From positions 2,027-66,026 of the forward strand of contig MZGJ01000006.1 of the NCBI GenBank assembly GCA_002084955.1: a DNA stretch of 64,000 nt, in the 5' to 3' direction. Position numbers and translations under genes: made by a program. Every line of letters starts with the position of its first letter. Positions within the stretch are counted from its first letter, which is position 1. Below the pieces are notes generated by a model. It ran no database searches and had not been told where the DNA came from. It saw only the letters and a program-made list of their open reading frames with translations. This DNA comes from a candidate division CPR3 bacterium 4484_211. GTDB lineage: Bacteria > Patescibacteriota > 4484-211. Shown here one piece after another: positions 1,691 through 64,000 of the stretch.

Positions 1691-2128
1691 AGAGCCGTTC
1701 TTTTCCGAGAAGACCCCGCAGTGAATAGGTTAATTTTACCATGTCGGACGCAGTTTATTAAAAAACAGCACAAGTTCCAAGCCTTTCCCTCAAAGTGGCT
1801 GAAAGCTTTTCGTTAAGAATTTGTTGGCTTGAGATGATAACCTAGTCTATCATAAACATAGCCAAACCAGCTTCGAAAAGAGTCAGTCGTTTTGAGAGTC
1901 AATCTTATTAGCAGGATTCTTCGTGTTGGACCTCAAGCTCTCTCTCTTTCTCACCGTTTTTCTTGTTGTTCTCATCCCGCTGTTTCCGATATTTTCCGGT
2001 TGTTTTCTTTGAGTCTTTGGATAACTTCATGTCGGGCATAGTACATCCTAGTGCCTTTAGAAAGGGGACTTGGTAGTTGAGCTGGCTCTGGACGCCGATT
2101 TATTTCTTGCTGTATAATTGCGGCAATT

Positions 2129-8702: not shown

Positions 8703-9770
8703 ATGCGTCTGGCAATTAATGGATTCGGCCGTATTGGCCGGACAGTCTTAAAGGTAATTCTTTCCCGGGGCGCTTGGGGAAGGGTGAGGGTCAGCTCCCG
8801 CATTAATCATGATCGGCTGGAGCTGGCGGCGATAAACAGCCGCAGTGGGCTAAATGAAACTGTCCCCTATCTTTTTAAATACGATACAGTTTATGGCTCA
8901 TATCCGGCCGAGGTGGGGATTTCTCCCGATGGCGGGTCTTTGCGTATTGACGGCCGGGATTATCTTTTTTTGGCCGAATCTGATCCCGGGAAGCTGCCCT
9001 GGAAAAATTTGGGAGTGGATGTGGTTTTGGAATGCACCGGGGCCTTTACGGAGTTTAACAAAGCTCAGGCTCACCTAAGGGCCGGTGCCAAGAAGGTAAT
9101 TATTTCAGCTAATGGCAAGGGGGAGGGTTTAACTTTGGTGCAGGGCACCAAGGCTTTTGAGAAATTTTTGTCCCAAAAAGATAACTATCGCGTGATCTCC
9201 AATGCTTCCTGTACCACTAACTGCGCTTCTCCGATAATACAGCTTTTGCATGACCATTTTCATGTGCTTAAAGCGCAGATGATCACCGTTCATGCGGTAA
9301 CTTCTACACAGAGTTTGGTTGATGACGCTAATAAAAATTTGCGCCGGTCGCGGGCGGCTTTTCAATCAATTATTCCTCAGCCAACGGGGGCGGCGGTGGC
9401 GGTAACTAGGGTTATTCCAGAGCTGGAGGGTCGAGTGAGCGGTTCGGCTTTTCGGGTGCCGGTAATTTGCGGCTCGGTCTTGGAAATTGTTGCCCAGATA
9501 GAAAAAGAAACCACGGCGGAAGAAGTTAATCAAGTTTTTAAAACAGCGGCCGCCGGCGAGCTTAAAGGAATTATCGCTGTCAGCGATGGCGGGCTGGTTT
9601 CGTCTGATGTTATCGGGTCGCCGGCATCGGCTACCGTAGACCTTCCCTTAACAGAAGTTTTGGATCTCCCCCATGTGGTTGACGAAAATCTTATTAAGGT
9701 GGTGGCCTGGTATGATAACGAGTACGGTTATGCTTGCCGGCTGGTGGAACTGGCTCAGGCGGTGTTATGA
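8703..9770 (+). CDS. gap: glyceraldehyde-3-phosphate dehydrogenase
   Basis: INGFGRIGR NAD site, SNASCTTNCASP catalytic Cys motif. Confidence 0.9.
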   Translation: MRLAINGFGRIGRTVLKVILSRGAWGRVRVSSRINHDRLELAAINSRSGLNETVPYLFKYDTVYGSYPAEVGISPDGGSLRIDGRDYLFLAESDPGKLPWKNLGVDVVLECTGAFTEFNKAQAHLRAGAKKVIISANGKGEGLTLVQGTKAFEKFLSQKDNYRVISNASCTTNCASPIIQLLHDHFHVLKAQMITVHAVTSTQSLVDDANKNLRRSRAAFQSIIPQPTGAAVAVTRVIPELEGRVSGSAFRVPVICGSVLEIVAQIEKETTAEEVNQVFKTAAAGELKGIIAVSDGGLVSSDVIGSPASATVDLPLTEVLDLPHVVDENLIKVVAWYDNEYGYACRLVELAQAVL

Positions 9771-11641
9771 ACCCCATTCTTTCTTCCCTTAATCCTCAAC
9801 AACGAAAAGCGGCTCGATGCATCAACGGACCAAGTCTTATCTTGGCGGGCGCCGGGAGCGGCAAAACTAGGGTTTTAACCCACCGGGCTGCCTATCTTAT
9901 TGATCAGGGAGTCTCCCCGCGCAATATCCTTTTGATTACCTTTACCAATAAAGCCGCCAATGAGATGAAAGAGCGCGTTTTTCGTCTGGTAGATGTTCAC
10001 GAGAAACCGCATATGGGGACTTTTCATGCCACCTGTGCCCGCATTTTACGTCAGCAGGCGGCGCAGGTTGGTCTGCCTCCCAACTATCTTATTTATGACC
10101 AAGCGGATCAACTGGCCGTTGTTCGCCAAGCGATGAAAAAGTTAAAGTTATCGCCTAAGGAGGTTAACCCGGCGGCAGTTAGAGGGATGATTGCCTCGGC
10201 TAAATGTGAGTTGTTGTCGCCGAGCGACTACAGCCGTTTGGCGTACGGGCCTTACCAGAAAAAAACGGCCGAAATTTATCCGCTTTATCAAGAAATTATG
10301 TCCGAAAATGAGGCCCTGGATTTTGGGGATCTTTTAATGAAAACGGTTAATTTACTTAAGGCGAATCCTCAAGTTCGCCGGGTCTATCAGGACCTTTTTT
10401 TGTTTGTGATGGTAGATGAATATCAGGATACCAATAAAGCGCAGTATGAATTCACCAAATTGGTGGCGGGAGGCAGGAAAAACTTATGTGTTGTTGGTGA
10501 CTGCAGTCAGAGTATTTATGCTTTTCGCGGGGCTAATTTGGGAAATATTTTGCGTTTTAAAACTGATTTTCCTCAAGCTCGGGTTTTTAATTTAGACCAG
10601 AATTATCGTTCCACTCAGATTATTTTGGATGCGGCCACCGAGATTATTAAGCCCAATAAGTCGGTTCATCCCGTTTTGCATTTGTGGACAAAGAATAAAA
10701 AAGGAAGCCCAATTGTTGTTTATCGGGCAATTGACGAAATAGATGAAGCCTTGTTTGTTATCTACCAGATTCAAAAATTGCGCTCGGTGGATTTGGATGA
10801 GTTTGCGGTCTTGTACCGCACCAATGCGCAGTCCAGGGTTTTAGAGGAGGCCTTTCTGCAGGCTAAGATACCCTATCGGTTAATCGGGGGAGTTCATTTT
10901 TATGAACGCAGGGAAGTTAAGGATATTGTGGCCTATCTTAGGTACATCCTTAATCCCAAGGACTTGGTTAGTTTTAAGCGTATTGTTAATACCCCTCCCC
11001 GCGGCATTGGTCCGGTGACTCTAAAAAAGGGAGGAGATAGACTGGATAAATTCATCAGTTTGATTAAACAACTGCGGGCCGAAGCTCATAAAAGGAGCGT
11101 CTCTGATCTGCTGGATTATTTGCTGGCCGAGATTAAGTTTAAGGAATATTTGGATGATGGAACACGGGAAGGTTTCGCTCGGTGGGAGAATGTTTTAGAA
11201 TTGAAATCCCTGGCTCAAAGTTTTTTGGAATTGCCGCCGTGGGACTCGTTGGTTTCTTTTTTGGAAAATGTAGCTCTTATGGAAAAAACGGAGGTGGCCA
11301 GCTTTCAGAATCGGAATGAGGTGCTCCCCCAAAAAGTGCCGGCGGTAAATTTGATGACTCTCCATGCGGCCAAGGGGCTGGAGTTTACCACTGTGTTTAT
11401 TGTAGGGATGGAAGAGGGTTTACTGCCTCATATTCAGTCGATGATGGAAAAAGAGAAACTGGAAGAAGAACGGCGGTTGGCCTATGTGGGAATTACCCGA
11501 GCTAAAGAAAGGGTGTTTTTGGTGCATACACAAAGCCGTCTTTATTTTGGCCAGCGGAGAATTTTTCCTCCCTCGCGCTTTTTGGAAGACATCCCCGAAA
11601 AGCTGGTGGAGGTGGAGGGAGCCGGGACAGCGAGTGGGTAG
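9767..11641 (+). CDS. uvrD: UvrD/PcrA-family ATP-dependent DNA helicase
   Basis: AGAGSGKTRVLTHRAAYLI (motif I), DEYQDTN (motif II), the remaining SF1 motifs present; ATGA overlap with the gap stop. Confidence 0.85.
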   Translation: MNPILSSLNPQQRKAARCINGPSLILAGAGSGKTRVLTHRAAYLIDQGVSPRNILLITFTNKAANEMKERVFRLVDVHEKPHMGTFHATCARILRQQAAQVGLPPNYLIYDQADQLAVVRQAMKKLKLSPKEVNPAAVRGMIASAKCELLSPSDYSRLAYGPYQKKTAEIYPLYQEIMSENEALDFGDLLMKTVNLLKANPQVRRVYQDLFLFVMVDEYQDTNKAQYEFTKLVAGGRKNLCVVGDCSQSIYAFRGANLGNILRFKTDFPQARVFNLDQNYRSTQIILDAATEIIKPNKSVHPVLHLWTKNKKGSPIVVYRAIDEIDEALFVIYQIQKLRSVDLDEFAVLYRTNAQSRVLEEAFLQAKIPYRLIGGVHFYERREVKDIVAYLRYILNPKDLVSFKRIVNTPPRGIGPVTLKKGGDRLDKFISLIKQLRAEAHKRSVSDLLDYLLAEIKFKEYLDDGTREGFARWENVLELKSLAQSFLELPPWDSLVSFLENVALMEKTEVASFQNRNEVLPQKVPAVNLMTLHAAKGLEFTTVFIVGMEEGLLPHIQSMMEKEKLEEERRLAYVGITRAKERVFLVHTQSRLYFGQRRIFPPSRFLEDIPEKLVEVEGAGTASG

Positions 11642-16332: not shown

Positions 16333-16972
16333 AAATACTTCTAGTGGTTGCAGTAGCGCAATTTTGGATTCGCCGCCGAATTGCAGGTTTTGCTTATTGT
16401 GCGCACAGATTGCGGACTAACTGCAGTGCCATTCGGCACACGGTGAGAGTCCGCTATTGTAAGTAAGGTAAGCATTGCGTCCCAATCATATTAAATCATA
16501 AAAACATCAAATCATAAAATGTGAAATTCCACTGTCCCGGGAGCGGCGGTTTCTCCAAGCTGTTAGCCACGCCCTTGTTAATACAGCTTTCTGATTCCTG
16601 GGTAGAAAAACTTAAGACGCAAAGTTGCAACCGGAAGCTGAAGAAAATCTTTAGTTTTAATTCTGTAATTTTGGAAGTGAGGATAGGCCATAAGTGTCCA
16701 ACTCAGCCATAATGACAATAATCAAGCACCAAATTACAAACAAATTCAGAATTCAGAATCCAGAATTCAGAATTCAAATGACCAAAACCTTCCCATGTTT
16801 AGAATTTAGAAAATTGTCATTTGGATTTGGTTTGACATTGGGCATTTTTAATTTGATATTTTACGAATTCACTCCTTAGAGAGAGGCGGCTCCTAGCCCT
16901 GCTGCCTACCACATTACTACATTACTACATTACTACGCTGCTGCACTGCTACCATCCCCAAAAACTTTTAGT

Positions 16973-17068
16973 ATGATAGACTAGTCTATCATATATGTAC
17001 GTTTTGGCTTGTGTATAAGCAAGTCTTAAAAGCAAGGTTAGATTTAGTATGATAAACTAGTCTATCAT
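16973..17068. promoter_or_regulatory. pair of 20-bp palindromes ATGATAGACTAGTCTATCAT (16973-16992 perfect; 17049-17068 with 1 mismatch), 76 bp centre to centre
   Basis: Read directly; the spacer is shared (reverse complement) with the pair at 33974-34059. Confidence 0.6.
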
Positions 17069-17213
17069 CACTGAGATTGTTTTAATGGAGTTTGGTTTTA
17101 GCATTTTTAGCATGTTTTTCCTTTGGAGGATGGATTGCAAATATCCAACTTAATTGTAATAGCGCACTCTTGCCGTGTACCCTTGCGGCACTGCAGTTAG
17201 TGCGCGACTAGAA

Positions 17214-17244
17214 GGGGTGACACCCTCTTTGAGGGTGTCACCCC
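17214..17244. repeat. 31-nt perfect palindrome GGGGTGACACCCTCTTTGAGGGTGTCACCCC (module P)
   Basis: Other copies at 18424-18454, 34404-34433 and 50792-50822; degenerate half at 55714-55735. Confidence 0.7.
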
Positions 17245-17450
17245 ATTCAAATAATTATCACTGCGGCCGGTGTGTGCTCTGATCGCAGACTAACCGCAGT
17301 ACCATTCGGTGCATGGCAAGAGTTTGCTGTTACGGTTAAATTTTGAGATTATGTTCTGGCCGTTTTAAAAATAGGTGCCTGGTAATTGGAGTTTGCTGAG
17401 GTGAATGCTAAATCCTAAAAGTGTAAAACTTTTATGGTAGAATTCTTTAT

Positions 17451-18329: not shown

Positions 18330-18340
18330 AGCTTCACCAT

Positions 18341-18454
18341 TTAATTGTAATAGCAGATTCTTGCCGTGTACCGAATGGTACTGCGGTTAGTCTGCGGTCT
18401 GTGTGCGCAATAAGCATTTGAATGGGGTGACACCCTCAAAGAGGGTGTCACCCC
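18341..18454. repeat. module H (18341-18412) plus module P (18424-18454) immediately downstream of secF
   Basis: Sequence identity to the other copies; possible terminator role. Confidence 0.6.
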
Positions 18455-18518
18455 GTTTATTGCTACTGGGCTGGGCATTTATGACCCGTCTTTAATAACT
18501 GTGCGATTATAATTAGCT

Positions 18519-19589
18519 ATGTTGAAACCGACAAGTCCCAAGGGTCTGGAGCATAGAAGTAATAGCGAAGATGGTGAGCCTGTCGAGTTAATTAAGCTGA
18601 GTTCTGAAAAGATAAATCTGGCTCCGGCTGAGTTTCCAACCATTACGAAGATGGTTCTTGAGAATATTGAGGAGAACTATGAAACAGAAAAGGGCAGTGT
18701 GTTTAGGGATGTGTTTTTAAACAGAAATGTGGAAAAGCATCCAGAGGTTTATGTAGAGTTTTTGCGTCAGCGTTTAGCGGGCACTAGATACGAACGAATG
18801 ACGGAAGAAGAGAGAGAGGATGAAGTGTTTAATCTCTCGCCGGAATTTAAAAAAATAAAAGCAGAATTTTGTGATGCTTTTAGATGTGAATTGCCCGAAA
18901 CGCCAGAGAAGATTCAAAAGGCTGTGAACCAAGAAGCCAAAATAATTATCACCGGCGTGGTTAGGTTGCTTAACTTTTTTGTTGCAAACCATATTAACAC
19001 GGCTGTTTTTTTAGACAAGTCGGCTAGGTATGCGGCTCATCTCGTCAGGGTTTGCTGGAGAGAGCTCCATTTGTCCCGACAGATGCCAGTGATTACTTTT
19101 ATCAATGTGGGGGGCGAATCTCGTGACGAAAAACTTGAAGAAAACCAGGCGCTGGTATCACATCTTCGGAAAGGCCTATTAAGGCATATGCAGGGGGCTA
19201 GGGTGGCGGTTGTAGATGACTTCGAGTTTACGGGAGACTCTTTGAGGAGAGCGACAAACCTGCTTACTAATGCCTTTCCGGAAGCACAATCTATAAACCC
19301 AGTTTATGCTTTTGACGATGAGCCTTTTTGGTACGGCAAAACTTATGAAGTGGTGGATCCATATGGAGAGGATGCCATAGAAAGCGAGCGTGCTCACACT
19401 AAAATCTTTACCAGGTCCCCAGCGCTGTTGGTTAAGGATCAGCAATTTCTTGCAGAAGCAGATGATTTTATACTCCGGGTGTATAAAGAAGGACTGACAA
19501 AAATGCCTCGGGTGGCTGCTTTAAGAAAAGAGCTTACCAAACTCGCCCAAGTGATTGTAGAAAATACGCGTCTGCTTTCCCAACAGTAA
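18519..19589 (+). CDS. hypothetical protein with a PRTase-like segment
   Basis: VAVVDDFEFTGDSLRRA resembles the phosphoribosyltransferase PRPP motif; weak. Confidence 0.25.
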   Translation: MLKPTSPKGLEHRSNSEDGEPVELIKLSSEKINLAPAEFPTITKMVLENIEENYETEKGSVFRDVFLNRNVEKHPEVYVEFLRQRLAGTRYERMTEEEREDEVFNLSPEFKKIKAEFCDAFRCELPETPEKIQKAVNQEAKIIITGVVRLLNFFVANHINTAVFLDKSARYAAHLVRVCWRELHLSRQMPVITFINVGGESRDEKLEENQALVSHLRKGLLRHMQGARVAVVDDFEFTGDSLRRATNLLTNAFPEAQSINPVYAFDDEPFWYGKTYEVVDPYGEDAIESERAHTKIFTRSPALLVKDQQFLAEADDFILRVYKEGLTKMPRVAALRKELTKLAQVIVENTRLLSQQ

Positions 19590-21481: not shown

Positions 21482-21890
21482 TTCGTTGTCAACTTAAAAC
21501 AAAATGGTCTGTTTGTCTTTTTGTTTTAACACCGGCTTGGGCTACTTCTAAAGTTTGGGCTTAATTAGGGACAAACCTAATTTCTAGTCATTATGGTCGG
21601 GACATGGTTTCAAAATTTAACCGTGAAGCTCCTCCTGCTTGGAAGCGGATGTGTTTTTCCTGCAGGATCCCACTCCTTAAAGAGCGAAAACCCCGAACCG
21701 AAAGCCACTTATCTACGCTCCTGTCGGTGTGGCTCTCCGCTTCGCGGGTAATAGCAGACTTTAATCTGCTTCCCTGAATCGCAGACTGACCGCATCACCA
21801 CAAGGGTACCCGGCAAGAGTTCGCTGTTACAACCAAGTTGACCATTTATGACCCCTAATTTCTAGTTATTATATAACACCCGCAGGTCTT
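21482..21890. repeat. composite repeat region: leader module R (21596-21668, co-oriented with the minus-strand gene), module H (21770-21830 rc), direct repeat cctaatttctagt(c/t)attat at 21577 and 21855
   Basis: Read directly. Confidence 0.6.
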
Positions 21891-33757: not shown

Positions 33758-33818
33758 GGTGTCTATTCTATCATTCCTCCTTTGTGTATCGGTAATGTCA
33801 GATACTTCCAAGAATCAT

Positions 33819-33878
33819 GGGCGGGACATAATTTTAAGATTTAACTGTGAAGCTCTACCGCCTTGGAAGCGGATGTCA
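33819..33878 (-). promoter_or_regulatory. leader/promoter-associated repeat module R, co-oriented and about 60-120 nt upstream of the lepA start
   Basis: Shares …catccgcttcc[aagg]cgg…gcttcac[ag]gttaaat…ttatgtccc with the copies upstream of trxB, rmuC and the 20552-21481 gene. Confidence 0.45.
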
Positions 33879-33899
33879 CACCGTTTATGATTACAACCG

Positions 33900-34556
33900 G
33901 GTTGGACATTTACAATCCATCCTCTGAGGGGGAAAACATGCTGAAACCGAACTCTATTAAAATAATCTCAGTGATGATAAACTAGTTTATCATACTAACC
34001 CTGACATTGTTTTTAAGACTTGCTTATATACAAGCCAAAACGCGCATGTATGATAGACTAGTCTATCATACTAAGAGTTTTTTTTGGGGATGTAGCAGTG
34101 TAGTGACGTGGTAGTAGTAATGTGGCAGTAGGGTTAGGAGCCGCCTCTCTCCAAGGAGTGAATTCGTAAAATGGCAGATTTCAAATAAGGTCCAAATTAC
34201 AACTTTCCAAATTTTAAACACTGAAAATTTTTGATTATTTGAATTTTGGATTTGTTTGTAATTTGGCGCTTGGTTATTATCATCATAACTGGAACATGAT
34301 GCCATACTTTACTTGTAATATCAGATTCTTGCCGTGTACCGAATGGTACTGCGGTTTGTCCGCGTTCGGAGCGCACACTGAAGGCAGCAATAGTTATTTG
34401 AATGGGGTGACACCCTCTTTGAGGGTGTCACCCTTCTAAGCGCGTGCTGATTATGGTACCGCCAGAGTACACGGCAAGGGTGCACTATTACGAGCTGGAC
34501 AGCTAATGGCGGTAGACTTTTGGTTTTATTGAAAAAATGGTATTATCCAAAAAGAG
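33900..34556. repeat. composite repeat region (palindrome pair, tactac and AT-rich modules in reverse complement, module H at 34300-34372, module P at 34404-34433, module H rc at 34440-34500)
   Basis: Mosaic rearranged copy of the 16694-17345 region. Confidence 0.7.
33974..34059. promoter_or_regulatory. pair of 20-bp palindromes (33974-33993 ATGATAAACTAGTTTATCAT, still palindromic; 34040-34059 perfect consensus)
   Basis: Read directly. Confidence 0.6.
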
Positions 34557-45088: not shown

Positions 45089-45108
45089 ATGATAGACTAG
45101 TTTATCAT
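45089..45108. promoter_or_regulatory. single 20-bp palindrome ATGATAGACTAGTTTATCAT, 33 nt upstream of the metal ABC ATPase start
   Basis: Read directly; the position suggests an operator. Confidence 0.55.
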
Positions 45109-45140: not shown

Positions 45141-45830
45141 ATGCCCGAGATAATTTTGGAAGTTAAAGATTTAAATGTTGTACTGGATGGGGAAAAGATT
45201 ATTGAAGATTTGTCTTTTAGTGTGCGGCGGGGTGATGTTTTAACTGTTTTGGGACCCAATGGGGCCGGAAAAACGGTTTTGTTAAAGACTCTCTTGGGGC
45301 TTTTGCCGTACCAGGGCCGAATTTGGTGGAAAGCGGGGGTTAAGGCGGGCTATGTGCCGCAAAGATTACCTTTTATCAAAGATTTTCCCATGAGTGTGGC
45401 GGAATTTTTTGAGCTGAAAGGTGTCTCTTTACAGGAGACAAGAGACATTTTAAGTTCGGTGGGATTTGGGGGAGAAGTTTTGAACAGAAAAATAGGGCAG
45501 GTATCTTCGGGACAGTTTCAGCGGATACTCATCGCCTGGGCTCTGGCAAAAAAATCGGAAGTTTTGCTTTTTGATGAACCAACTGCTGGGGTGGACATTG
45601 GTGGTGAAGAGACTATTTATAGTTTACTAAACAAGCTGAAAATAGAGAATAAATTAACCATTCTCTTGGTAACCCACGATCTTAGTGTAGTCTCCAAGTT
45701 CTCTAATTTTGTCATCTGTTTAAATAGGAGTTCGGTTTGCCAGGGGGCTCCCAAACAGGTCTTGTCAACAGGCGCTTTGCAGAAGCTTTATGGCGACGAG
45801 GTGAAATTTTACGGACACCAGAAAGTTTAG
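45141..45830 (+). CDS. metal (Zn/Mn-type) ABC transporter ATP-binding protein
   Basis: GPNGAGKTVLLKTLLG Walker A, SSGQFQR signature, LLFDEPTAGVD; ZnuC/MntB-like length and layout. Confidence 0.7.
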   Translation: MPEIILEVKDLNVVLDGEKIIEDLSFSVRRGDVLTVLGPNGAGKTVLLKTLLGLLPYQGRIWWKAGVKAGYVPQRLPFIKDFPMSVAEFFELKGVSLQETRDILSSVGFGGEVLNRKIGQVSSGQFQRILIAWALAKKSEVLLFDEPTAGVDIGGEETIYSLLNKLKIENKLTILLVTHDLSVVSKFSNFVICLNRSSVCQGAPKQVLSTGALQKLYGDEVKFYGHQKV

Positions 45831-45834
45831 AATT

Positions 45835-46599
45835 ATGAATCAGTTTCTTTTAAGTTTAATTTCGGGAATTTTTATTGGCGGCGCGGCAGGTTATTTGGGT
45901 TCCTTGATGCTTTCAAAAAGAATGGCCTTGGCGGCTGGGCCTCTTGGTCATTTAACACTGCCGGGTATTGCTCTGGCTTTAATCTATGGTTTTGATGTTT
46001 CTTTGGGAGCTTTCCCCTGTGTTATTTTGGGGATTGTTCTAATTTGGTTTCTGCAGATTAAAACTCCGCTGCCGATGGAGGCGTTGACGGCGATTGTTTT
46101 TTCTGCGGGCGTTGCCGCGGCCTTTTTGTTTTTACCTATTGCCGAAGCTGAAGAGGCTTTGGTTGGTGATATCTCTAAGGTGAGCCTAGGGGATGCGTTT
46201 TTGGCAGTTTTTTTATGTTTGACAGTTTTTTTCCTGGTTAAGAGGATTTATCCCCAGTTGATTTTGGTTAATATTTCTGAGGATCTGGCAAGGTCTGAGG
46301 GTGTTGATGTTAAGAAATACAATTTGCTTTTTTTGTTTTGCGTGGCGGTTATTGTGGCTTTGGGAGTCAAAATTGTTGGGGGATTGTTGACGGCCGCTTT
46401 GGTGGCTATTCCCGCGGCCACCAGTAGGAACTTGAGTAGGAATCTTTTCCGATACAAGTATGGATCGGTTTTTTTTGGGGGGGTTGGCTGTAGTACTGGC
46501 ATTTTTCTTTCCCGCTTTCTGCATCTTCCTGCCGGGCCGTTGATAATTCTTAGCTTGACCCTGTTTTTTCTCCTTTCTTTGAAATTCGCAAAACCTTGA
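45835..46599 (+). CDS. ABC-3 family metal transporter permease (ZnuB-like)
   Basis: 254 aa, 7-8 TM, typical ABC-3 glycine-rich helices, follows the ATPase. Confidence 0.65.
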   Translation: MNQFLLSLISGIFIGGAAGYLGSLMLSKRMALAAGPLGHLTLPGIALALIYGFDVSLGAFPCVILGIVLIWFLQIKTPLPMEALTAIVFSAGVAAAFLFLPIAEAEEALVGDISKVSLGDAFLAVFLCLTVFFLVKRIYPQLILVNISEDLARSEGVDVKKYNLLFLFCVAVIVALGVKIVGGLLTAALVAIPAATSRNLSRNLFRYKYGSVFFGGVGCSTGIFLSRFLHLPAGPLIILSLTLFFLLSLKFAKP

Positions 46600-49628: not shown

Positions 49629-50783
49629 TTATTCATATTCTTTAAAAATTTGTACGAGAGTTGTCTCAACGGCATGCCAGCTGTACTTTTCCACGCAAAC
49701 CTGTCGAGCCTTTTGGGCTCTCTTTTTAGCCTCCGCCGGGTGTCCTAAGACGTATTGAATTGTATCAGCCAGTTGTCGTGGATTCTCTGGCGGAATAAGC
49801 CACCCTGCATCTTTTATGATCTTAGGTATATTAGAGACTTTAGTAGAGACTATTGGTTTCTCCATTGCCATGGCGTCAAATAACTTTGCCGGTGTTTGGC
49901 CAGTGGTTGCTGTATTCTTTCGCTGAGGTACAACTACTATGTCAGCCATGGCTAAAATTTGGGGAAGTTTACAAAATTTTTGTATCCCTAATGCTATAAA
50001 TCTATTTCTCAATCTTTGTTTGGCTAATTTGAGAATTTTCTGTCCATAGCTGTTCTCGGAGCTTATACCTGCGATTACCAGGATCGTGTTTTTATTATCT
50101 ATAAGGCTCATTGCTTCTATTAAGTCTTCAATCCCTTTGTACGGTCTTGGATGCCCGCAGAACATAATGACTTGTTTTGTTTTGTCTATACCGTAGTGTC
50201 TTCTCGCCAGTACAGTGTCGATTTTTTGGGGAGAGAAGTAGTTGGTATCTCTGGCGTGCGGGATGATGATCCCCTTAAATTTGCGTTGCAGAAACGTATT
50301 AGATACCGTGATTTTGTCGGCAAGCTGTGTTAGTTGTTCAAAAAATAAAATGTTCCAGTAGGAAGTTGGTTTGTCAAATCTTAAAAGGGAGTATGCTAGA
50401 AAGGCAAGGCGTGTAGAGAGTGAAAAGCTTCTTGAATTTTCCTTGGCTAGGCCTAATTGCCAGTCATCAATATCAAGTATTAAGGGTTTTTTCTCTGTTA
50501 TCTTTTTAAGTAGGGCCAAACCGAAGCTTGTTAAAAGTGGCTTTGATGCATAAATAACTTTTCCGTCTATAGCCTTGAGAACTTTCCTAATTTTAAAGGT
50601 CTTGCCAAGAAACAAAGGTTTGTAATTGATACTGGTATCATTAGCAACGGGTTGCCAAATTCCCTTGCCAAACATTGGCCCCGCTACTTCCACTTCGTAC
50701 CGGCGCTTGAGTATTTTAGCAAGTAGATAGGCTCTGCCTAAACAGTTATGCGAAAGGTCGGGTGTGAGAATTGATATTTTCAT
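49629..50783 (-). CDS. glycosyltransferase family 4 (GT-B); start at MKISILT because the upstream ORF extension is encoded by repeat modules
   Basis: GT-B fold; C-terminal sugar-donor region …ATTGQTPAKLFDAMAMEKPIV. Confidence 0.65.
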   Translation of the reverse strand: MKISILTPDLSHNCLGRAYLLAKILKRRYEVEVAGPMFGKGIWQPVANDTSINYKPLFLGKTFKIRKVLKAIDGKVIYASKPLLTSFGLALLKKITEKKPLILDIDDWQLGLAKENSRSFSLSTRLAFLAYSLLRFDKPTSYWNILFFEQLTQLADKITVSNTFLQRKFKGIIIPHARDTNYFSPQKIDTVLARRHYGIDKTKQVIMFCGHPRPYKGIEDLIEAMSLIDNKNTILVIAGISSENSYGQKILKLAKQRLRNRFIALGIQKFCKLPQILAMADIVVVPQRKNTATTGQTPAKLFDAMAMEKPIVSTKVSNIPKIIKDAGWLIPPENPRQLADTIQYVLGHPAEAKKRAQKARQVCVEKYSWHAVETTLVQIFKEYE

Positions 50784-50791
50784 GAGTGAAA

Positions 50792-50895
50792 GGGGTGACA
50801 CCCTCTTTGAGGGTGTCACCCCATCTAAGCGTGCATCAACCGCGGTACCACAGGGGTACACGGCAAGAGTGCGCTATTACAATTAATTTGGACAT
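50792..50895. repeat. module P (50792-50822) plus module H rc (50826-50895) between divergent glycosylation genes
   Basis: Sequence identity to other copies; the palindrome lies 9 nt upstream of the GT4 start codon. Confidence 0.65.
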
Positions 50896-50934
50896 TTATA
50901 ACCCGCCTATAATTTTACTGTACTTTGCTACAAT

Positions 50935-52035
50935 ATGTCCATGCGTGCTACTTCCAAGAAGGTGTTTTTTATTTTAGCCCTTGCGTGGCTGCTGTTTTGT
51001 TGCTCTATCTATTTCATTGCCCGCCCTTTTTTTCTTGAGATAGTTCCTCTTTTGGTTCTCGTTTTAATTGTCTCTAGAGGAATTAAGCCAAAGTTTATCA
51101 TCAGTGTTCTACATTTAACTTTGGTTGGCTTATTTGGGGCGGTGTTTCTGTCTTTAATGTATGGAGTAATGGACAAGCAGTTGATGCACTTTGGTTTTAT
51201 CGCTTTTATTTCTGCAATATGTAAATCTTTGTCTGTTACGATTCTGGGAATAACTGTTATCACGGGCTTGGTTGCGGGACTTGGCAGTAAAGTCCTTTCT
51301 AAATTTTGTTTTAAATGCGAGTCTGGTTTAGGGCAGTTTTTGATCTCTATTGGGTTGGGGATCGGTATTGTGATTAATTTTGGCTTTTTTTTGGCTTACT
51401 TTAAAATTCTTAAACTTCCCGTGGTGATATTTCTTGTCGTTGGCCTATTTTACCTGTCTAGAAAAGAAATAGGGTCGTTTTTTAATAAAATAGCTAGGGC
51501 AAAAATTAGGGTAAAGGGAGATCTTCAGGTTGTTCTATTCTTCTCCGTTTTTATTCTCGTAATTTCACACCTTGTTACCAAGTTGAGAGGTTTCCCGTTG
51601 GAGTTTGATAGTCTGTCGCTGTATGCCAATACCGCCAAGAACCTGGCTTTAACCGGCAGGCTGCCCCAAGCCTGGTCTTTTCCTTTTGGGATTGAACTAT
51701 TTATGGGGTTTAATTGGCTTTTGTTTGGGGCGGGGACTGCCTTGACGATAAACAGTTTGCTTGGCTTGTTAAGTGTTTTGGCCATTTATCTAATTGCCAG
51801 GAAATTCGTTGGTTATAATTTTGCCTTGTTCCCGTCAATCTTTTTTTATACTACCTTTGCCGTGGCTCAGCTGACCTATTTTGACGACAAAGTTGACCTG
51901 GGAATTCTGTTCTTTGGGGTTCTGTCGGTTTATGCATTTCTGCAGTGGCATACTCTTCACCGCCGCAGGATATCCATCAAATTAGAACCGCGGTACTGTC
52001 TAACCGCGGGGAAAGGACGGATTTATGTGAAATAA
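50935..52035 (+). CDS. polytopic membrane protein, GT-C (ArnT/PMT)-like candidate
   Basis: About 11 TM helices; position in the glycosylation cluster. Confidence 0.35.
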   Translation: MSMRATSKKVFFILALAWLLFCCSIYFIARPFFLEIVPLLVLVLIVSRGIKPKFIISVLHLTLVGLFGAVFLSLMYGVMDKQLMHFGFIAFISAICKSLSVTILGITVITGLVAGLGSKVLSKFCFKCESGLGQFLISIGLGIGIVINFGFFLAYFKILKLPVVIFLVVGLFYLSRKEIGSFFNKIARAKIRVKGDLQVVLFFSVFILVISHLVTKLRGFPLEFDSLSLYANTAKNLALTGRLPQAWSFPFGIELFMGFNWLLFGAGTALTINSLLGLLSVLAIYLIARKFVGYNFALFPSIFFYTTFAVAQLTYFDDKVDLGILFFGVLSVYAFLQWHTLHRRRISIKLEPRYCLTAGKGRIYVK

Positions 52036-53061: not shown

Positions 53062-53442
53062 CTAGTTCCTGAGGGTGTATTCTAAGGAGATAGTCACGGC
53101 CAGTGTTAGAAGAAGAGTGAAAAAGTTGGCTGTTCTGGTCAGGAGCAGTAAGCAGGCAATGATAATACCCAAGCCAACTAGGGCGCCCTGACGAAGGCTT
53201 TTTCTATAGGTAAATCGTGGGTCGGTGTAGTCCCCCAAAAGCCGGTAGAGATAAAAAAGAATAATAGAAGTTGCGCTGGTTGCAAATAAAAAGAGCGTTG
53301 TTAAGAAAATTATGACGCGAGAGTGGTTAAGGGTAATTGCCGGCGGAGTGCCGGTAAATGGTGCGCTGTAAAAAAGGAGGCGGCTTAGATAAAGACCACT
53401 AAACAGGCCGATGCCGACGGCGGGAATTAAGTATTTTTGCAT
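53062..53442 (-). CDS. small membrane protein, hypothetical
   Basis: 126 aa, four TM. Confidence 0.25.
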   Translation of the reverse strand: MQKYLIPAVGIGLFSGLYLSRLLFYSAPFTGTPPAITLNHSRVIIFLTTLFLFATSATSIILFYLYRLLGDYTDPRFTYRKSLRQGALVGLGIIIACLLLLTRTANFFTLLLTLAVTISLEYTLRN

Positions 53443-53633: not shown

Positions 53634-53727
53634 ATGATAGACTAGTTTATCATCACTGGGCTTACAGGCCGCCATAAAAGCTTTTCCCAAATTGTGTCTT
53701 AAATTGGTATGATAGACTAGTCTATCA
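53634..53727. promoter_or_regulatory. pair of 20-bp palindromes (53634-53653 with 1 mismatch; 53708-53727 perfect), 74 bp centre to centre
   Basis: Read directly. Confidence 0.6.
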
Positions 53728-54279
53728 TACTGGGTGGTTAGATAGTTTTTGAGAAGGCGGTGGGTTCTTTACATCTGTACACCTGGCCGCCTTTTAATAC
53801 CGGATCTTATTTAAAACGATTATCAAAACGATTATCAACGCAACGCTGGGTCTGGTTTTTTAAAAACTCTACCGCCTTAAGTTAAATTTAATTAAGCTTA
53901 TCTGTTTTGGGGATTTATTTTTTTTCGCTGGGGTTTTTGCTTTTTACCTGTTCTTAAAAATTTTGGGTTTTGGCAAAAGGGGGCTTTGTAGCTGTTTATT
54001 TTTCCTTTTGGCAGTACCTGTTTTGCTGGTCTATGTCCTGCGCCTCAATTGTGGTTAAACCTTTAGGGACTTTGGTTTGTGCTCTTTACCGGTCCTTTCT
54101 TGTCCGGATGCATTTTTTCTAACCTTAAATAAGGTAAAACAGAAATTTAGATTTGGAACCAAAGGGGGAGTCGTGGTAAGATGGGAGAGAAGTAGCGTAT
54201 TTCCAGATTTTATAGAGATTTGAGGCTTTTAAGAGGATGGGGTGTGAATGCCTAGCTTAGTTGCAGCAGGGGGTGTCGC

Positions 54280-54612
54280 TCCATTTAAGTGATTGTTGCT
54301 GTGATTATTGCGCGTGCAGATCGCAGACCAACCGCAGTACTATTCGGTGCATGGCAAGAGTCTGCTATTGCAAGTAAAGTGCAGTATTATGTCCCAGCTA
54401 TAATGGCAATAACCAAGCACCAAATTACAAACAAATTCAAAATTCAAATAACCAAAACTTTTGGACTGGGTTTGACATTTGGCATTTTTAACTTGCCGCT
54501 TTACGGCTATGCCCTTCTTCAAGAGCGCAGTCCTGCAAGAAAAATATATCCGCTTCCAAAGCGGTGGGTTTTTACAGTGGGTTTTTACAGTTAGATCTTG
54601 AAATTATGCCTC
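54280..54612. repeat. composite repeat: module H rc (54303-54375), AT-rich and ttgacatttggcattttta module, leader module R (54532-54612) with an internal tandem tgggtttttacag x2
   Basis: Matches 6600-6810 and 16700-16860. Confidence 0.65.
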
Positions 54613-55664: not shown

Positions 55665-55917
55665 GGTTGTAATCTGGGCTGATTAAAAGTTAACCATTTG
55701 GAAAGAGTAACGCTCTCTTTGAGGGTGTGTCATTCCATTTAGATGATTACGAAATGTCTTTCCATCAATACCGCAATAGGGCATTGCCGTTGCCTCGCCC
55801 GTGCCCGCCCGCCGGCAAGCCGGGAATTTAAGAGAGCACTCCTTTTAAGGTTTTGTGAAGACGAATTAACAGAACTAACGCGAAGACGGATTAGCAGAGT
55901 TAACCATGATGACGATG

Positions 55918-56012
55918 ATGATAGACTAGTCTATCATCATAAAGCACTAACAAAGAATAAGTTCACTACTGTATCAAGCACTAACACCTGATATGATAGA
56001 CTAGTCTATCAT
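55918..56012. promoter_or_regulatory. pair of perfect 20-bp palindromes (55918-55937; 55993-56012), 75 bp apart, downstream of the TrpR-like gene
   Basis: Read directly. Confidence 0.6.
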
Positions 56013-56223
56013 ACCAGAGCGCCATTACAAAAACTAACCACCGTGAACTAAGGGAGAAATTAAACTCTCAAGGACTAACTTGCAAACTTAATCGGTTCCT
56101 TTATCGGTGAAATAGCTGATGAAACTTAAAAAGGCTTCATAATTAAAATTGAAGCAACAAGCTAAAGAAGGTAAACTTTTAAAGGAAGTTGATAACAATC
56201 AGTGAGGGCTCTCTAGGTGATTT

Positions 56224-56697
56224 CTAGTTTTTTTTCTCCAAATTTTTCTTAACTTCTCTTTTTCTTTTCAATTTAAGCAATTCACGTGCAGATTTTTCTA
56301 AAGCATATTTCGCGGCTAGAGAACCCAGCTTATGGGGGCCGGTAAATTGAGGTCCTTTTTGCATCTTCTTCTTTGCTTTCTGATCAATTTTAGAAATCTT
56401 CTCAACCACTTTCTCAAGACCACCTTCTCCATAATCCAAGATCTGTGCAACCCGGCCCACCGTCTGGTTGGTTACTTTTAACCGGTTGATAATTGTCCGG
56501 TAATCACAGCCCTCATAGAGCATTAAGGCTATCTGGAGCCGCTTGGCCAGCATGCGAATTTCCATCTTTGTAAAAAGGTCTTTTATAAAAGGCTCAAGTT
56601 CTTCACGATCTAGGCATAAATTAAAAGCATTGATTAAATTGTCAATGTAATATCGCATGAACTTATTTTCTACTTTGCGCGGTGAAAGCCTCGACAT
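56224..56697 (-). CDS. TrpR-like DNA-binding protein, YerC/YecD family
   Basis: LINAFNLCLDREELEPFIKDLFTKMEIRMLAKRLQIALMLYEGCDYRTIINRLKVTNQTVGRVAQILDYG matches the YerC/YecD TrpR-like pattern (helix-turn-helix near …TNQTVGRV…); basic C-terminal tail. Confidence 0.65.
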   Translation of the reverse strand: MSRLSPRKVENKFMRYYIDNLINAFNLCLDREELEPFIKDLFTKMEIRMLAKRLQIALMLYEGCDYRTIINRLKVTNQTVGRVAQILDYGEGGLEKVVEKISKIDQKAKKKMQKGPQFTGPHKLGSLAAKYALEKSARELLKLKRKREVKKNLEKKN

Positions 56698-56717
56698 GAT
56701 AAATTTTTAGCTTAAAG

Positions 56718-56812
56718 ATGATAGACTAGTCTATCATCTTTAGGATAACAGGAAAATATAAAACCTGTCAACAATCATGAAAACCCCCTAGTATGATAGA
56801 CTAGTCTATCAT
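56718..56812. promoter_or_regulatory. pair of perfect 20-bp palindromes (56718-56737; 56793-56812), 75 bp apart, in the promoter region of the TrpR-like gene
   Basis: Read directly. Confidence 0.65.
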
Positions 56813-61604: not shown

Positions 61605-64000
61605 TTAATTATTATTCTCAACAATCTTAATTTCTTCCTTTGTCAAGCCATAAAGTTTATAAACCAACTGGTCAATTTGTTTTTCGTATTCGCGGACTTT
61701 GGCTTGTTTGGCAGGGTTTTCTAAATAATCATCGTCTTTGGTAATGGCGAGGATTTTATCAACGAGGTCAATAAATAGTTTTTGTTCGTCTTGTGAAATT
61801 TTAATGATTGGAAGCTGTTCTATATAGATTGAAAAGTGTCTAATACCCCTTACTCCAAGCTGAGATGAAATCATCTTATAATACAAATTTATAAGAGAAG
61901 AATTGAGGATTGCGCATAAATACTTAACAGCATTCCCGGTTAAAAAATATGCGGTATTTGCAAGATAGTAACCATCTATGTCTAGAGAAAAAGTAAGGCG
62001 TTGTGCTATGTCGGTATAAACAATTTTTTCTTTTTCAAATTCTTGATGGTATGCAATATTATCTTGAGTTTCAAACCATTTATTACCTGTTTTTTTTCTA
62101 GCACCTTTTTTGCCGCTTTGTTCTAATCTTTGTTTTCCAAACGATAATAAGTAATTTTTCACTGCCGGATATTGATCTATATCAATATGTAAACTTGGAA
62201 AAGTAGCAATCAACCACAACCCAGCCCAGCGGTAGTAGTAGCGGCCAATGTCTCTGCCGCGAAGTATCGGTTTTAGAATTTCTTTGGATTTTGGATCTTC
62301 TCGGCACAAGTGCTCTTTGGTTGGCGTATCAATAATGAATGCTTTGTTAAAGCCGGTTTTAATTCCATAATTTATTTTTACAGCCCAATCTTTTAACGGC
62401 GTACCTGCCCGTTCAATTTTCTGTTTAATCTTTAGGGTTTTCTCATCCACCAAAGACCAGCCGCTATCATTAAGATGCTTAGAATTAATGTATTGCTGGT
62501 GTTCTGCTAAATAAGTAGAAAGATTTTCGCCGGTAAAATCGGGTTCTATATCTACAAACGGAACTTGATAACTTCCCACTGGAATATCCTTTTGTAAAAT
62601 AATCACATTAGTATCAACGGTGGCTTCAAAAACTTTATGTCCGTTGAAGTCAATGAGCTGAAGGATTTTTGTCTTTTCTTTGAAAAAACGTCTTAATTTT
62701 TCCCCATATTTTGCCCGCAACCACTTGTTGCTGGAGATAAATGCGAGAGTTCCTTTGTTTTCCAACAAATTGTAGCTTTTTTCATAAAAATATGTATAAA
62801 GGTCAGAAGTGGAGTTGTACACTTCATATTTTTGCAAAGGCGGTTTTTGATCTTTGATTTTCTCCTGCCTCACATACGGCGGGTTGGCGATGACTACATC
62901 AAACCCGCCCTTTTCATCAAAAACCTCATTGAAATTTAAGTGCCATTCAAAGTGGTCTTCTGGAGAAGTGTCTTTAATTTTTTCCAACTCTTGGACTTTT
63001 TTCTTTAGTTTTTTGACCTCTTTTGTTTCAATCTCTCCAAGAGTCAGGTTTTCAGGGCCTAAAGAAAATAAGCTTTTTTGAGCCTTTAAGTTAGCAAGCA
63101 AGTTCTTGCTTTGTTTAAGTTCTTTAGCTTTATCGTAATTAGCAATAAAAACTATTAACTTATTAATTTGATCTCTTAAGTTTTGCTTTCTTTTTCTATT
63201 AGTCGCTTCAAAATACTGATTTTTTAAATCGTTCAGTTTATCTATCAATTTATTTTTCTCTTGATCTGTCCCTTTTCTAACTAAATCAGGAGATAATAGT
63301 TCAATTAAACTATTGCCCTGCATAATTTTGTAATCAAGATTGGGAAGAGGTTTAATTCTTTTAATATCTTGTTCATCAACAATAAGTGAAAGCCAAAGCC
63401 TTAGTTTGGCAATTTCTACTGCTCCCAAATCAATGTCAACACCATAAAGAGATTTTTGAATGCAGTCTCTTTTTAGATCATAGAGAGAAACGTTCTTATT
63501 GAGAACAAAAGCCAGTCTTTTTCTTGCATTAACTATTTCATTTAGCATTCCTACTAAAAAAGCTCCGGATCCACAAGCCGGATCACATACAAAAATACTT
63601 TCTAGGGTATCATCTAATTCCTTTGCCTCTTTTTTCCGTAGATTCAAAATCGAACCATCAACAATATGGTTCTTTCTTCCTCCTTTCTTTCTAAATTTTC
63701 GATAATCTCTTTTTGTGATTGGCTTGGGATTAATCAAGGCATTAATCTTCTTTTTATCTAAGCAAGTTTGACTAATTAAGTAGTTGATTAGGCTTTGCTG
63801 GCACATATAGTGGACAATTTCTCTTGGCGTGTAGTAGGTGCCCTTTGATTTTCTATCCTTTACTTCCAGCAGGTTTTCAAACACTTTCCCCAACATTTCC
63901 GGGTCAACAGCAACCTCTTTATCAAGAGGTTCATCTTCTTTGACGGTGAAGTTATAGCGGTCAAAAACATCCAGTATTCCGGTTCCAGTATCTCCTTCTT
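61605..64000 (-). CDS. gamma-class N6-adenine DNA methyltransferase with a large C-terminal (TRD-like) extension; N-terminus outside the window (type IIG/ISP/BREX-PglX-like)
   Basis: LGKVFENLL…GTYYTPREIV (motif X), VCDPACGSGAFLVGM (motif I), VIANPPYVRQE (motif IV), then more than 400 aa; the frame stays open (no stop) from the annotated Met at 63896 to the window end at 64000, so the protein is longer. Confidence 0.8.
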   Translation of the reverse strand, partial: EGDTGTGILDVFDRYNFTVKEDEPLDKEVAVDPEMLGKVFENLLEVKDRKSKGTYYTPREIVHYMCQQSLINYLISQTCLDKKKINALINPKPITKRDYRKFRKKGGRKNHIVDGSILNLRKKEAKELDDTLESIFVCDPACGSGAFLVGMLNEIVNARKRLAFVLNKNVSLYDLKRDCIQKSLYGVDIDLGAVEIAKLRLWLSLIVDEQDIKRIKPLPNLDYKIMQGNSLIELLSPDLVRKGTDQEKNKLIDKLNDLKNQYFEATNRKRKQNLRDQINKLIVFIANYDKAKELKQSKNLLANLKAQKSLFSLGPENLTLGEIETKEVKKLKKKVQELEKIKDTSPEDHFEWHLNFNEVFDEKGGFDVVIANPPYVRQEKIKDQKPPLQKYEVYNSTSDLYTYFYEKSYNLLENKGTLAFISSNKWLRAKYGEKLRRFFKEKTKILQLIDFNGHKVFEATVDTNVIILQKDIPVGSYQVPFVDIEPDFTGENLSTYLAEHQQYINSKHLNDSGWSLVDEKTLKIKQKIERAGTPLKDWAVKINYGIKTGFNKAFIIDTPTKEHLCREDPKSKEILKPILRGRDIGRYYYRWAGLWLIATFPSLHIDIDQYPAVKNYLLSFGKQRLEQSGKKGARKKTGNKWFETQDNIAYHQEFEKEKIVYTDIAQRLTFSLDIDGYYLANTAYFLTGNAVKYLCAILNSSLINLYYKMISSQLGVRGIRHFSIYIEQLPIIKISQDEQKLFIDLVDKILAITKDDDYLENPAKQAKVREYEKQIDQLVYKLYGLTKEEIKIVENNN

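Follow-up and report, generated by a model that had tools for sequence, protein, structure and literature searches.

A recurrent 20-bp palindrome and its candidate regulator, a long TrpR-fold protein of the YerC/YecD type, in a CPR3 bacterium

The 64,000-nucleotide stretch of contig MZGJ01000006.1 analysed here (hereafter the window) comes from candidate division CPR3 bacterium 4484_211, of the candidate phyla radiation (CPR), and contains repeated copies of a 20-bp palindrome, ATGATAGACTAGTCTATCAT, four of which bracket a gene coding for a TrpR-like protein. These sites are real and non-random, and across CPR lineages they are associated and co-vary with a protein that has the TrpR fold. Judged from sequence, the palindrome is probably the operator of the adjacent protein, a CPR-specific long form of YerC/YecD, which would repress its own gene and act as a multi-target repressor in the CPR3 lineage. 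The precedent of TrpR and HisR for the binding of 20-bp palindromes makes an operator of a long YerC-like protein, with autoregulation, the best supported reading. Actual binding, the sign of the regulation, looping, an effector, the regulon and the spread of the sites are what we infer from these patterns.

Distribution and constraint of the palindrome

A pattern scan allowing up to three mismatches detected 12 copies of the palindrome in the window, all with 0–2 mismatches and seven of them exact, as the initial annotation of this DNA had reported. In 100 dinucleotide-preserving shuffles the 20-mer was expected with a mean of 0.00 and a maximum of 0, and no further copies appeared in the window even when up to six mismatches were allowed. 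A further 7.6 kb past the right end (L084; retrieved loci and contigs carry L numbers) contained no more copies, and the left-end contig added none. The hexamer ACTAGT occurs 15 times in the window, 11 times within palindromes; the copy at 1834 has CCTAGT instead. All seven independent sites are intergenic, the non-coding share of the window being only about 18 per cent (P about 6e-6).

Ten of the copies form five doublets, p1 to p5, each 75–76 bp apart. The remaining two, at 1834 and 45089, are single, and no decayed partner was detected beside them (the former checked at ±60–140 bp). A spacing of 74–76 bp with one 66-bp pair had been proposed earlier; the value of about 75 bp stands, and the 66-bp pair does not, since the copy placed at 34040 lies at 34050 and its pair is therefore 76 bp apart. 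Another copy moves from 53708 to 53709, and all the other positions were correct. One doublet, not two, lies on each side of the TrpR-like gene (56718/56793 upstream and 55918/55993 downstream), and the variants, first described as mostly symmetric, are so in only one of the five non-exact copies (33974). With the exception of 1834, the variable position in these copies is the symmetric pair 7/14 only (G/A, C/T). The palindrome is usually longer than its 20-bp core, extending to 22–30 bp with the consensus agtATGAT...ATCATact; the full form, AGTATGATAGACTAGTCTATCATACT, measures 26 bp.

The spacers within the doublets are 55–56 nt long and unrelated in sequence, except those of 16973/17049 (p1) and 33974/34050 (p2), which belong to an inverted repeat (89 per cent over 149 nt, extending to about 450 bp). 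A search for hidden homology among the spacers recovered only p1/p2; the comparisons p3–p5 and p3–1834L were marginal (p about 0.02), which is not significant across 36 comparisons.

Four metagenome contigs, 95–98 per cent identical to parts of the window, were used to compare strain variants. The palindromes contained no differences (0/180), nor did their flanks (0/54), versus 134/3011 (4.5 per cent) in other intergenic DNA (P = 2.8e-4); coding sequence of the same variants diverged by 0.8 per cent. Divergence in the doublet spacers (8/221) is close to that of intergenic DNA, and their length is unchanged. The palindromes are under purifying constraint.

Several known kinds of element were considered for these sites. 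A miniature inverted-repeat transposable element had already been argued against from the unrelated spacers, and the argument held: the flanks show no target-site duplications, no transposase is present, and an intragenic copy in a relative replaces sequence without a change in length. The doublets might be taken for one-spacer mini-arrays resembling clustered regularly interspaced short palindromic repeats (CRISPR), with a 20-bp repeat and a 55-bp unique spacer, and the repeat–spacer–repeat geometry, the constant spacer length and the lack of relation between spacers would suit this idea. Its probability is nevertheless negligible: there are never more than two repeats, no cas operon is present (only a Cas4-like nuclease in the neighbouring defence island) and two doublets share one ‘spacer’, by which a CRISPR array is effectively refuted. 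The repeats are also perfect full-length palindromes, single copies accompany a regulator gene in every lineage, and spacings of 133 and 247 bp occur as well. Restriction avoidance was rejected, since CTAG as a whole is under-represented by a factor of about two and those ACTAGT hexamers that do not belong to palindromes show only mild depletion. A tRNA or known RNA in the 75-bp units was rejected too, as ARAGORN and Rfam found only tRNA-Gln, tRNA-Arg and tmRNA, elsewhere in the window. A phage origin was likewise rejected: there was one unrelated pattern match, and no homologue of the regulator was found in viral contigs.

The TrpR-like regulator

The open reading frame (ORF) bracketed by the palindromes is 100 per cent identical to hypothetical protein B5M47_01635 of candidate division CPR3 bacterium 4484_211. 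Its earlier assignment to the YerC/YecD-type TrpR-like proteins was borne out by matches above the curated cutoffs to Pfam Trp_repressor PF01371 (3.5e-13; 49.9 bits against a cutoff of 27) and to NCBIfam TIGR02531 YerC/YecD (50.9 bits against 42.2). Trp_repressor is its only Pfam match, and no nuclease, transposase or recombinase domain was found with Pfam, NCBIfam or the AlphaFold2 (AF2) model. This model (pLDDT 80.8) predicts a TrpR core at about residues 12–113, a linker and a long C-terminal helix at 125–156, a helix absent from TrpR and HisR. With Foldseek it matched 3KOR, 3FRW and 3G1C (root-mean-square deviation 1.2–1.8 Å, TMt 0.78–0.88; 3KOR at 1.2 Å), solved structures of the YerC/HisR type that the family profile matches as well, and E. 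coli TrpR (TMt 0.62–0.71), with 19–24 per cent identity over the structural alignment.

The C-terminal helix and tail are basic. The helix belongs to a conserved extension of about 55 aa, by which the protein exceeds the small (below about 110 aa) single-domain form. A HMMER search returned 32 cluster representatives at E < 1e-30, and among its best 150 matches about 100 were full-length proteins of 145–170 aa, which indicates that the long form is a real family. The taxon names carried by its members are Daviesbacteria, Doudnabacteria and Patescibacteria.

Association and co-variation across CPR lineages

A scan for ATGATRRACTAGTYYATCAT covered 185,579 species genomes together with the JGI metagenomes, and the loci that it returned were searched with a hidden Markov model of the protein; the contexts of more divergent family members were retrieved besides. 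A 68 per cent identical orthologue (L001, GCA_018818265.1) has palindromes at 263 and 15 nt before the ATG, with a further one 1 nt past the stop codon, and a 49 per cent identical one (L004) has one palindrome, 109 nt upstream of the ATG. The scan also returned six loci of the Daviesbacteria type (L009, L010, L023, L049, L060 and L080, of which L023 bears the taxon label Gammaproteobacteria), the proteins of which are only 37–44 per cent identical. In each of these loci the exact 20-mer precedes the ATG by 3–16 nt, and the stop codon is overlapped or directly followed by a conserved variant, ATGATACTCTAGTGTATCAT; the asymmetric centre TCTAGT is conserved in six lineages. The other matches of the scan (Arsenophonus, Tissierella and others) fit the approximately ten chance matches estimated for the degenerate pattern in 596 Gb.

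An upstream palindrome was present in 16 of 16 independent CPR loci, 3–40 nt before the ATG (109 nt in L004), and a downstream one in 15 of 16, at or just after the stop codon. The more divergent homologues each carry a different palindrome of their own, again at both gene ends (Table 1). The type of palindrome follows the residues with which the recognition helix begins (VT-NQ/VQ/GQ-T, VT-PG-T, V(A/S)-KV/KK-T, VT-DR-T and VT-TG-T), and these align with the positions through which TrpR and HisR contact DNA. The co-occurrence of the YerC-like gene and the palindrome across CPR genomes, anticipated in the initial annotation, was thereby found, and co-variation in addition. These patterns speak for the pairing of protein and palindrome that the annotation had put forward, whereas its comparison with the CTAG of the E. 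coli trp operator is only a lead. No clear counter-example, that is, a palindrome in relatives devoid of the regulator gene, was met, though a genome-wide check could not be made.

Spread of the site to other promoters is confined to the CPR3 lineage, with 12 copies per 64 kb, and to its nearest relative, a metagenome-assembled genome (MAG) of which holds 8–9 copies; L006 of this relative has a 77-bp doublet. In Daviesbacteria the regulator gene is chromosomal and syntenic, in the order alr-ddl-def-gyrA-x-gene.

Transcriptional control in the uncultivated CPR/Patescibacteria is almost unstudied, and a predicted protein–operator pair conserved across several CPR classes is a rare handle on it. 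The eight helix/palindrome combinations represent natural specificity variants that are directly testable in vitro or in E. coli.

Comparison with known repressors

TrpR and HisR (= YerC) bind 20-bp palindromes and often autoregulate; binding by HisR was confirmed in vitro, and a site precedes roughly half of the hisR genes (PMC9413887). HisR of Firmicutes resembles the CPR regulator, as predicted here, in its fold, its membership of TIGR02531, its 20-bp palindromic operator and the frequent location of a site upstream of its own gene (PMC9413887), as well as in a lineage-specific operator consensus that co-evolves with the protein. However, HisR is shorter than 110 aa, whereas the CPR proteins have 150–165 aa, including a linker and a C-terminal helix that is long and basic, and the HisR operator cacTTTAnnnnnnTAAAgtg (consensus cacTTTA-N6-TAAAgtg) is unrelated to the CPR candidate. 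None of the CPR sites has his genes or histidine transporters in its vicinity; the genes found there code for ABC/ABC-3, LepA, ProRS, SecF, PGK, ABC-F, an AMP-binding enzyme and others. Since operator, size and neighbouring genes all differ, the CPR regulator is not a HisR orthologue. Bracketing of the gene by sites at both its start and its stop, and doublets of 75–77 bp, are not described for HisR.

E. coli TrpR recognizes a palindromic operator containing ACTAG elements; its own gene, too, is under its repression, by way of an operator that overlaps the promoter. The CPR regulator shares the TrpR fold, but its effector pocket is not conserved and there are no trp/aro genes among its candidate targets. 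In the E. coli trp operators two CTAGs, separated by 8 bp, flank a TTAA centre, whereas the CPR palindrome has a single central CTAG. The kind of system is already known, namely a repressor of the TrpR/HisR family with a 20-bp palindromic operator and autoregulation. The literature searched contained no account of this CPR family or of its palindrome, self-bracketing architecture and doublets. If the ordinary reading is true, the family would be a useful yet unsurprising new branch of TrpR/HisR.

Repressors that loop DNA between auxiliary operators include LacI (O1/O2/O3), GalR (OE/OI) and lambda CI (OR/OL), the lac O3 and O1 operators lying at -82 and +11. The promoter predicted for the CPR regulator is similarly enclosed by two sites, at about -67 and +8, and a site past the gene end recalls lac O2 or the lambda OL/OR sites around cI. 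By analogy, the C-terminal helix could be an oligomerization module. The fold is unrelated to that of these repressors, the 75-bp spacing is shorter than classical loops, and looping in CPR is something that we only infer.

Promoter geometry and proposed mechanism

The best sigma-70-like promoter of the regulator gene was predicted in the spacer between the two upstream palindromes. Relative to the predicted transcription start, the proximal palindrome lies at about -2 to +18 and the distal one at about -58 to -77. The proximal copy would therefore overlap the predicted promoter or transcription start, in line with the autoregulation proposed in the first annotation. In orthologue L001, TTGACT-17-TTATGT occupies the equivalent position and ends 5 nt before the proximal palindrome; in the two genes the promoter-like match ends 4–5 nt before the palindrome. 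The Daviesbacteria loci have a conserved TTGTTT/TTGCTT box 3–4 nt upstream of the palindrome, a spacing from which the TATCAT of the palindrome would serve as the -10 box, 7–8 nt before the ATG. On this reading both the promoter spacer and the -10 box would be occupied by the operator, and the mRNA would be leaderless. At the single copies beside other genes a -10-like box ends 6–13 nt upstream of the palindrome: TATATT, ending 6 nt before 45089 (ABC transporter), TATAAT in L018 and TATTAT before PGK in L013. This geometry is suggestive of an operator role. Divergent promoters arranged back to back in every spacer and built on TATGAT at the edges of the palindromes were rejected; some 9/12 matches occur, not above shuffles and not in all doublets.

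We propose that a dimer reads each palindrome via the N-terminus of its recognition helix (VTNQT in the window protein). The proximal upstream copy would cover the transcription start of the regulator promoter, so that the protein would repress itself. The gene is bracketed by the copy 75 bp further upstream and by the pair past its stop codon; these bracketing sites and the additional C-terminal helix suggest higher-order, probably tetrameric, binding that may loop or clamp the promoter or the gene, or act as a roadblock. A spacing of 75–77 bp is about seven helical turns and would place both sites of a doublet on the same DNA face. Cooperative binding of a tetramer, with looping or roadblocking, would be consistent with the fixed doublets and the C-terminal helix. 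In the CPR3 lineage and its nearest relative the near-perfect site may have been recruited beside other promoters (metal-type ABC transporter, LepA/ProRS and VTT/SecF), which would make the regulator a multi-target repressor.

The palindromes could alternatively act as RNA hairpins at the 5' and 3' ends of mRNAs, in their stability, processing or termination and independently of the TrpR-like protein. Such a role would suit the copies that directly adjoin the start and stop codons of the regulator ORF and those in 5' leaders (14 nt before the PGK ATG in L013), as well as the extended, copy-specific complementary flanks of several copies. We consider it very improbable. The stem is AT-rich and has no U-tract, a terminator scan was empty at all copies, by which an intrinsic terminator was rejected, and Rfam gave no match. 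Conservation concerns the primary sequence, beyond mere pairing; asymmetric variants yield A.C mismatches on one strand, and the asymmetric TCTAGT centre is retained in six lineages. The position of the Daviesbacteria site between -35-like and -10-like elements is likewise not in its favour, and the co-variation with the recognition helix would be left unexplained.

The candidate targets of a repressor would be the metal-type ABC transporter, LepA/ProRS, VTT/SecF, a YkuD/PGA_cap protein, ABC-F, an AMP-binding enzyme and PGK. The YkuD/PGA_cap gene, with the 77-bp palindrome doublet in front of it, is inserted in the related MAG (L006 1081–3500, compared with window 9530–9843); the window has GAPDH and then directly UvrD. 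There are no more than hints of a link between the regulator and central carbon genes. The TrpR-like gene of a Doudnabacteria locus (L083 5381–15445) lies within a tim-rpiB-rpe-tkt / pfkB-gap-pgk-pgm cluster, and in another such locus, L013 (4863–4897), the 20-mer is found 14 nt upstream of the PGK start. The TrpR-like gene of L013 itself carries a different palindrome, which points to a second paralogue or to cross-recognition.

Several observations weigh against an operator with a regulon. The candidate targets are functionally incoherent and none is common to the window genome and its nearest relative. Promoter consensus matches in a scan of the window were not above shuffled expectation. 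Copies lie at convergent gene ends (55918/55993; L014), where a promoter is not expected, and perfect palindromes with typical flanks occur within coding genes of other CPR genomes. In six lineages with 10–20 kb of flank, the palindrome of the lineage was found only at the two gene ends and nowhere else, which would leave a regulator with no visible target besides itself. The quality of the sites is ‘digital’, with nothing at 3–6 mismatches, and the conserved 20–26 bp contain much more information than is required of an ordinary operator. Looping over 75 bp would be tight and would depend on bending of the DNA.

Intragenic copies and alternative roles of the palindrome

The palindrome has one open frame, the same on either strand, which encodes YDRLVYH. 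In the AMP-binding gene of a relative (L058), QYDRLVYHT stands in place of the SFGKLVKES of 23 orthologues, with no gap in the alignment, and insertion of the palindrome into coding genes is thereby rejected. Compared with a 79 per cent identical orthologue (L090), 15 of the 26 nt of this site differ, against 21 per cent gene-wide. The absence of a gap and the number of changed positions thus indicate that the intragenic site was written in without a change in length, by strong selection or as a templated patch.

Such a patch invites the idea that the palindrome is a self-propagating repeat, similar to repetitive extragenic palindromic (REP) sequences and their REPIN doublets or spread by templated conversion, with the TrpR-like protein as a binding or maintenance factor comparable to RAYT and with regulation secondary or absent. 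REPIN-RAYT systems consist of REP doublets flanking a Y1 transposase gene, the doublets being homologous units with a conserved spacer and folding as a single long hairpin. The doublet–gene–doublet layout of the window, with the same doublets dispersed in intergenic DNA, resembles them. Further points in favour are that only near-perfect copies are present, that one doublet has been copied within the 450-bp composite repeat (at least four copies), that the genome is rich in other mosaic intergenic repeats, that the intragenic copy of L058 looks like a pasted patch (15/26 nt against L090, no indel) and that doublets p3–p5 have a common polarity, a G..C-flanked copy being followed by a T..A-flanked one. 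We still regard this possibility as unlikely. The CPR protein is a helix-turn-helix regulator and not an HUH/Y1 transposase (PF01797), and has no nuclease, transposase or recombinase domain. Target-site duplications are absent, every single repeat forms a complete perfect palindrome by itself, and only the p1/p2 spacers are related. The same 20-mer has been kept between lineages whose proteins are only 37–44 per cent identical, which is not expected of a young mobile repeat. Most related lineages have just two copies, both flanking the regulator gene; the gene is syntenic and vertically inherited in Daviesbacteria, and the copies are promoter-proximal.

A role in chromosome structuring was also considered, in which protein and palindrome would form an insulating or centromere-like system of the parS/ParB, matS/MatP or Noc type and perfect sites would nucleate or bridge complexes. 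Digital perfect palindromes across deep lineages are reminiscent of parS. A site at the protein's own gene, the density of 12 per 64 kb, the copies at convergent gene ends and within genes, the basic C-terminal helix and tail, and the presence of gyrA, gyrB and holB near the regulator gene in Daviesbacteria would all be in keeping with it. This role appears improbable, since the protein has no ParB, CTPase or other bridging domain, most lineages have only two sites in 10–20 kb and the proximal sites overlap promoter cores. The change in GC skew at 56 kb might suggest an origin or terminus; the skew returns to positive after about 68 kb together with the GC content, which identifies the flip as a 12-kb low-GC defence island. 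A replication terminus or matS-like cluster at 56 kb was accordingly rejected, no dif-like site being found, as was a parS/ParB centromere, given a protein with the TrpR fold only and no origin or terminus signal in the window besides the inserted island.

There is also an outside chance that the palindrome and the long TrpR-like protein make up a self-bracketing module of a less ordinary sort. Its sites would spread by copying or conversion, without a transposase or a change in length and even into coding sequence, and would act as protein-clamped boundaries or bridges (insulators or roadblocks, parS- or REPIN-like on a TrpR fold) and not as an ordinary metabolic regulon. Sites at start and stop in all but one of 16 loci, the 75–77-bp doublets, the all-or-none quality of the sites and a perfect 26-bp site placed in coding sequence with no indel fall short, so far, of demonstrating a new mechanism. 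They raise questions of mechanism that concern looping or tetramerization via the C-terminal helix, roadblocking and the origin of operators.

Table 1. Palindromes, regulator gene and associated features in the window and in related loci
Feature	Locus	Position	Strand	Remarks
Regulator gene	Window	56224–56697	-	157 aa; YerC/YecD-type TrpR fold; PF01371, TIGR02531, AF2 model, Foldseek
Best sigma-70-like promoter of regulator gene (predicted)	Window	56742–56771	-	TTGACA-18-TATCCT with TG, 10/12; in spacer between the two upstream palindromes; consensus match only
Palindrome, proximal upstream	Window	56718–56737		Exact; within 30-bp palindrome TAAAG...CTTTA; ends 20 nt before regulator ATG; overlaps predicted transcription start
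Palindrome, distal upstream	Window	56793–56812		Exact; 75 bp from proximal copy; about 22 nt upstream of predicted -35
Palindrome, downstream	Window	55993–56012		Exact; 210 nt past regulator stop; part of downstream bracket
Palindrome, downstream	Window	55918–55937		Exact; 283 nt past stop; between convergent RmuC and regulator genes
Doublet copy, left	Window	53634–53653		1 mismatch; 191 nt upstream of minus-strand 126-aa ORF 53062–53442
Doublet copy, right	Window	53709–53728		Exact; 75 bp from 53634
Single copy	Window	45089–45108		1 mismatch; 32 nt upstream of ATG of ABC ATPase/ABC-3 permease operon (45141–46599)
Doublet copy	Window	33974–33993		2 mismatches; symmetric variant ATGATAAACTAGTTTATCAT; intergenic region of divergent LepA (-) and ProRS (+)
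Doublet copy	Window	34050–34069		Exact; 76 bp from 33974
Doublet copy	Window	16973–16992		Exact; intergenic region of divergent VTT-domain (-) and SecF (+) genes
Doublet copy	Window	17049–17068		1 mismatch; 76 bp from 16973
Degenerate single copy	Window	1834–1853		2 mismatches; CCTAGT core; between tRNA-Gln and 102-aa ORF
Composite intergenic repeat	Window	16700–17110	+	Carries 16973/17049 doublet; inverted copy 33900–34290; more copies in metagenome contigs L042 and L076
Divergent palindrome	L082			ATGATACT-TCCT-AGTATCAT
Divergent palindromes	L083			ATGGTAGACCAGTCTACCAT and AAGGTAGACTAGTCTACCTT
Divergent palindrome	L013			GTATACTGGACTACTCCAGTATAC
Divergent palindrome	L087, imperfectly L081			TATAATACAGTCGTGTATTATA
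Divergent palindrome	L088			ATGATAGATGGGTCTATCAT
Divergent palindrome	L089			GATACTTCCATGTAT
Intragenic copies	L005	1519 and 6537		holB-like gene and Mur ligase
Intragenic copies	L028/L062			GT4 glycosyltransferase
Intragenic copies	L058, also L033 and L070	3934–3953 (L058)		AMP-binding/acyltransferase gene

Neighbouring DNA and other repeats

The defence island, of low GC content (0.29–0.36) and negative GC skew, adjoins the regulator gene and extends from 56900 to the end of the window at 64000 and on to about 68 kb (L084). It codes for a SWIM/PDC-S62-like protein, a Cas4-like PD-(D/E)XK nuclease, a KAP NTPase (PifA/QatA-like), a Type IIG restriction-methylase of 1149 aa, an NYN domain protein and an HKD+Snf2 helicase. 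In neighbourhoods of the Daviesbacteria type (L010, L023, L088, L082 and L005) holB-gyrB are found near the regulator gene too, and in L005 an ‘upstream-type’ and a ‘downstream-type’ copy of the palindrome lie 5 kb apart, around gyrB. A Y1_Tnp gene is located 4.5 kb from the regulator gene in L087 and does not belong to the unit.

Within and close to the downstream doublet (55860–56080) there are five copies of the hexamer ACTAAC. Just to the right of the copy at 53709, a stem AAGGCGG...CCGCCTT is followed by TTTAATA (53729–53800); speculatively, it could terminate a short transcript begun in the doublet. A GC-rich perfect hairpin, GGGGTGACACCCTCTTTGAGGGTGTCACCCC, is present five times, mostly just past gene ends (17206–17238, 18416–18448, 34396–34428, 50784–50816 and 55696–55728), and may be a terminator-like element without a U-tract.

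Unusually long intergenic regions made of mosaic repeats lie at 16340–17450, 18330–18520, 21590–21890, 33812–34556, 50775–50935 and 54268–54600. Their repeat families include TTAATTGTAATAGC...CTTGCCGTGTACC and ...AACCGCAGTACCATTCGGTGCATGGCAAGAG..., and short tandem repeats with CAGAATT and CATTACTA units are found near 16750–16940.

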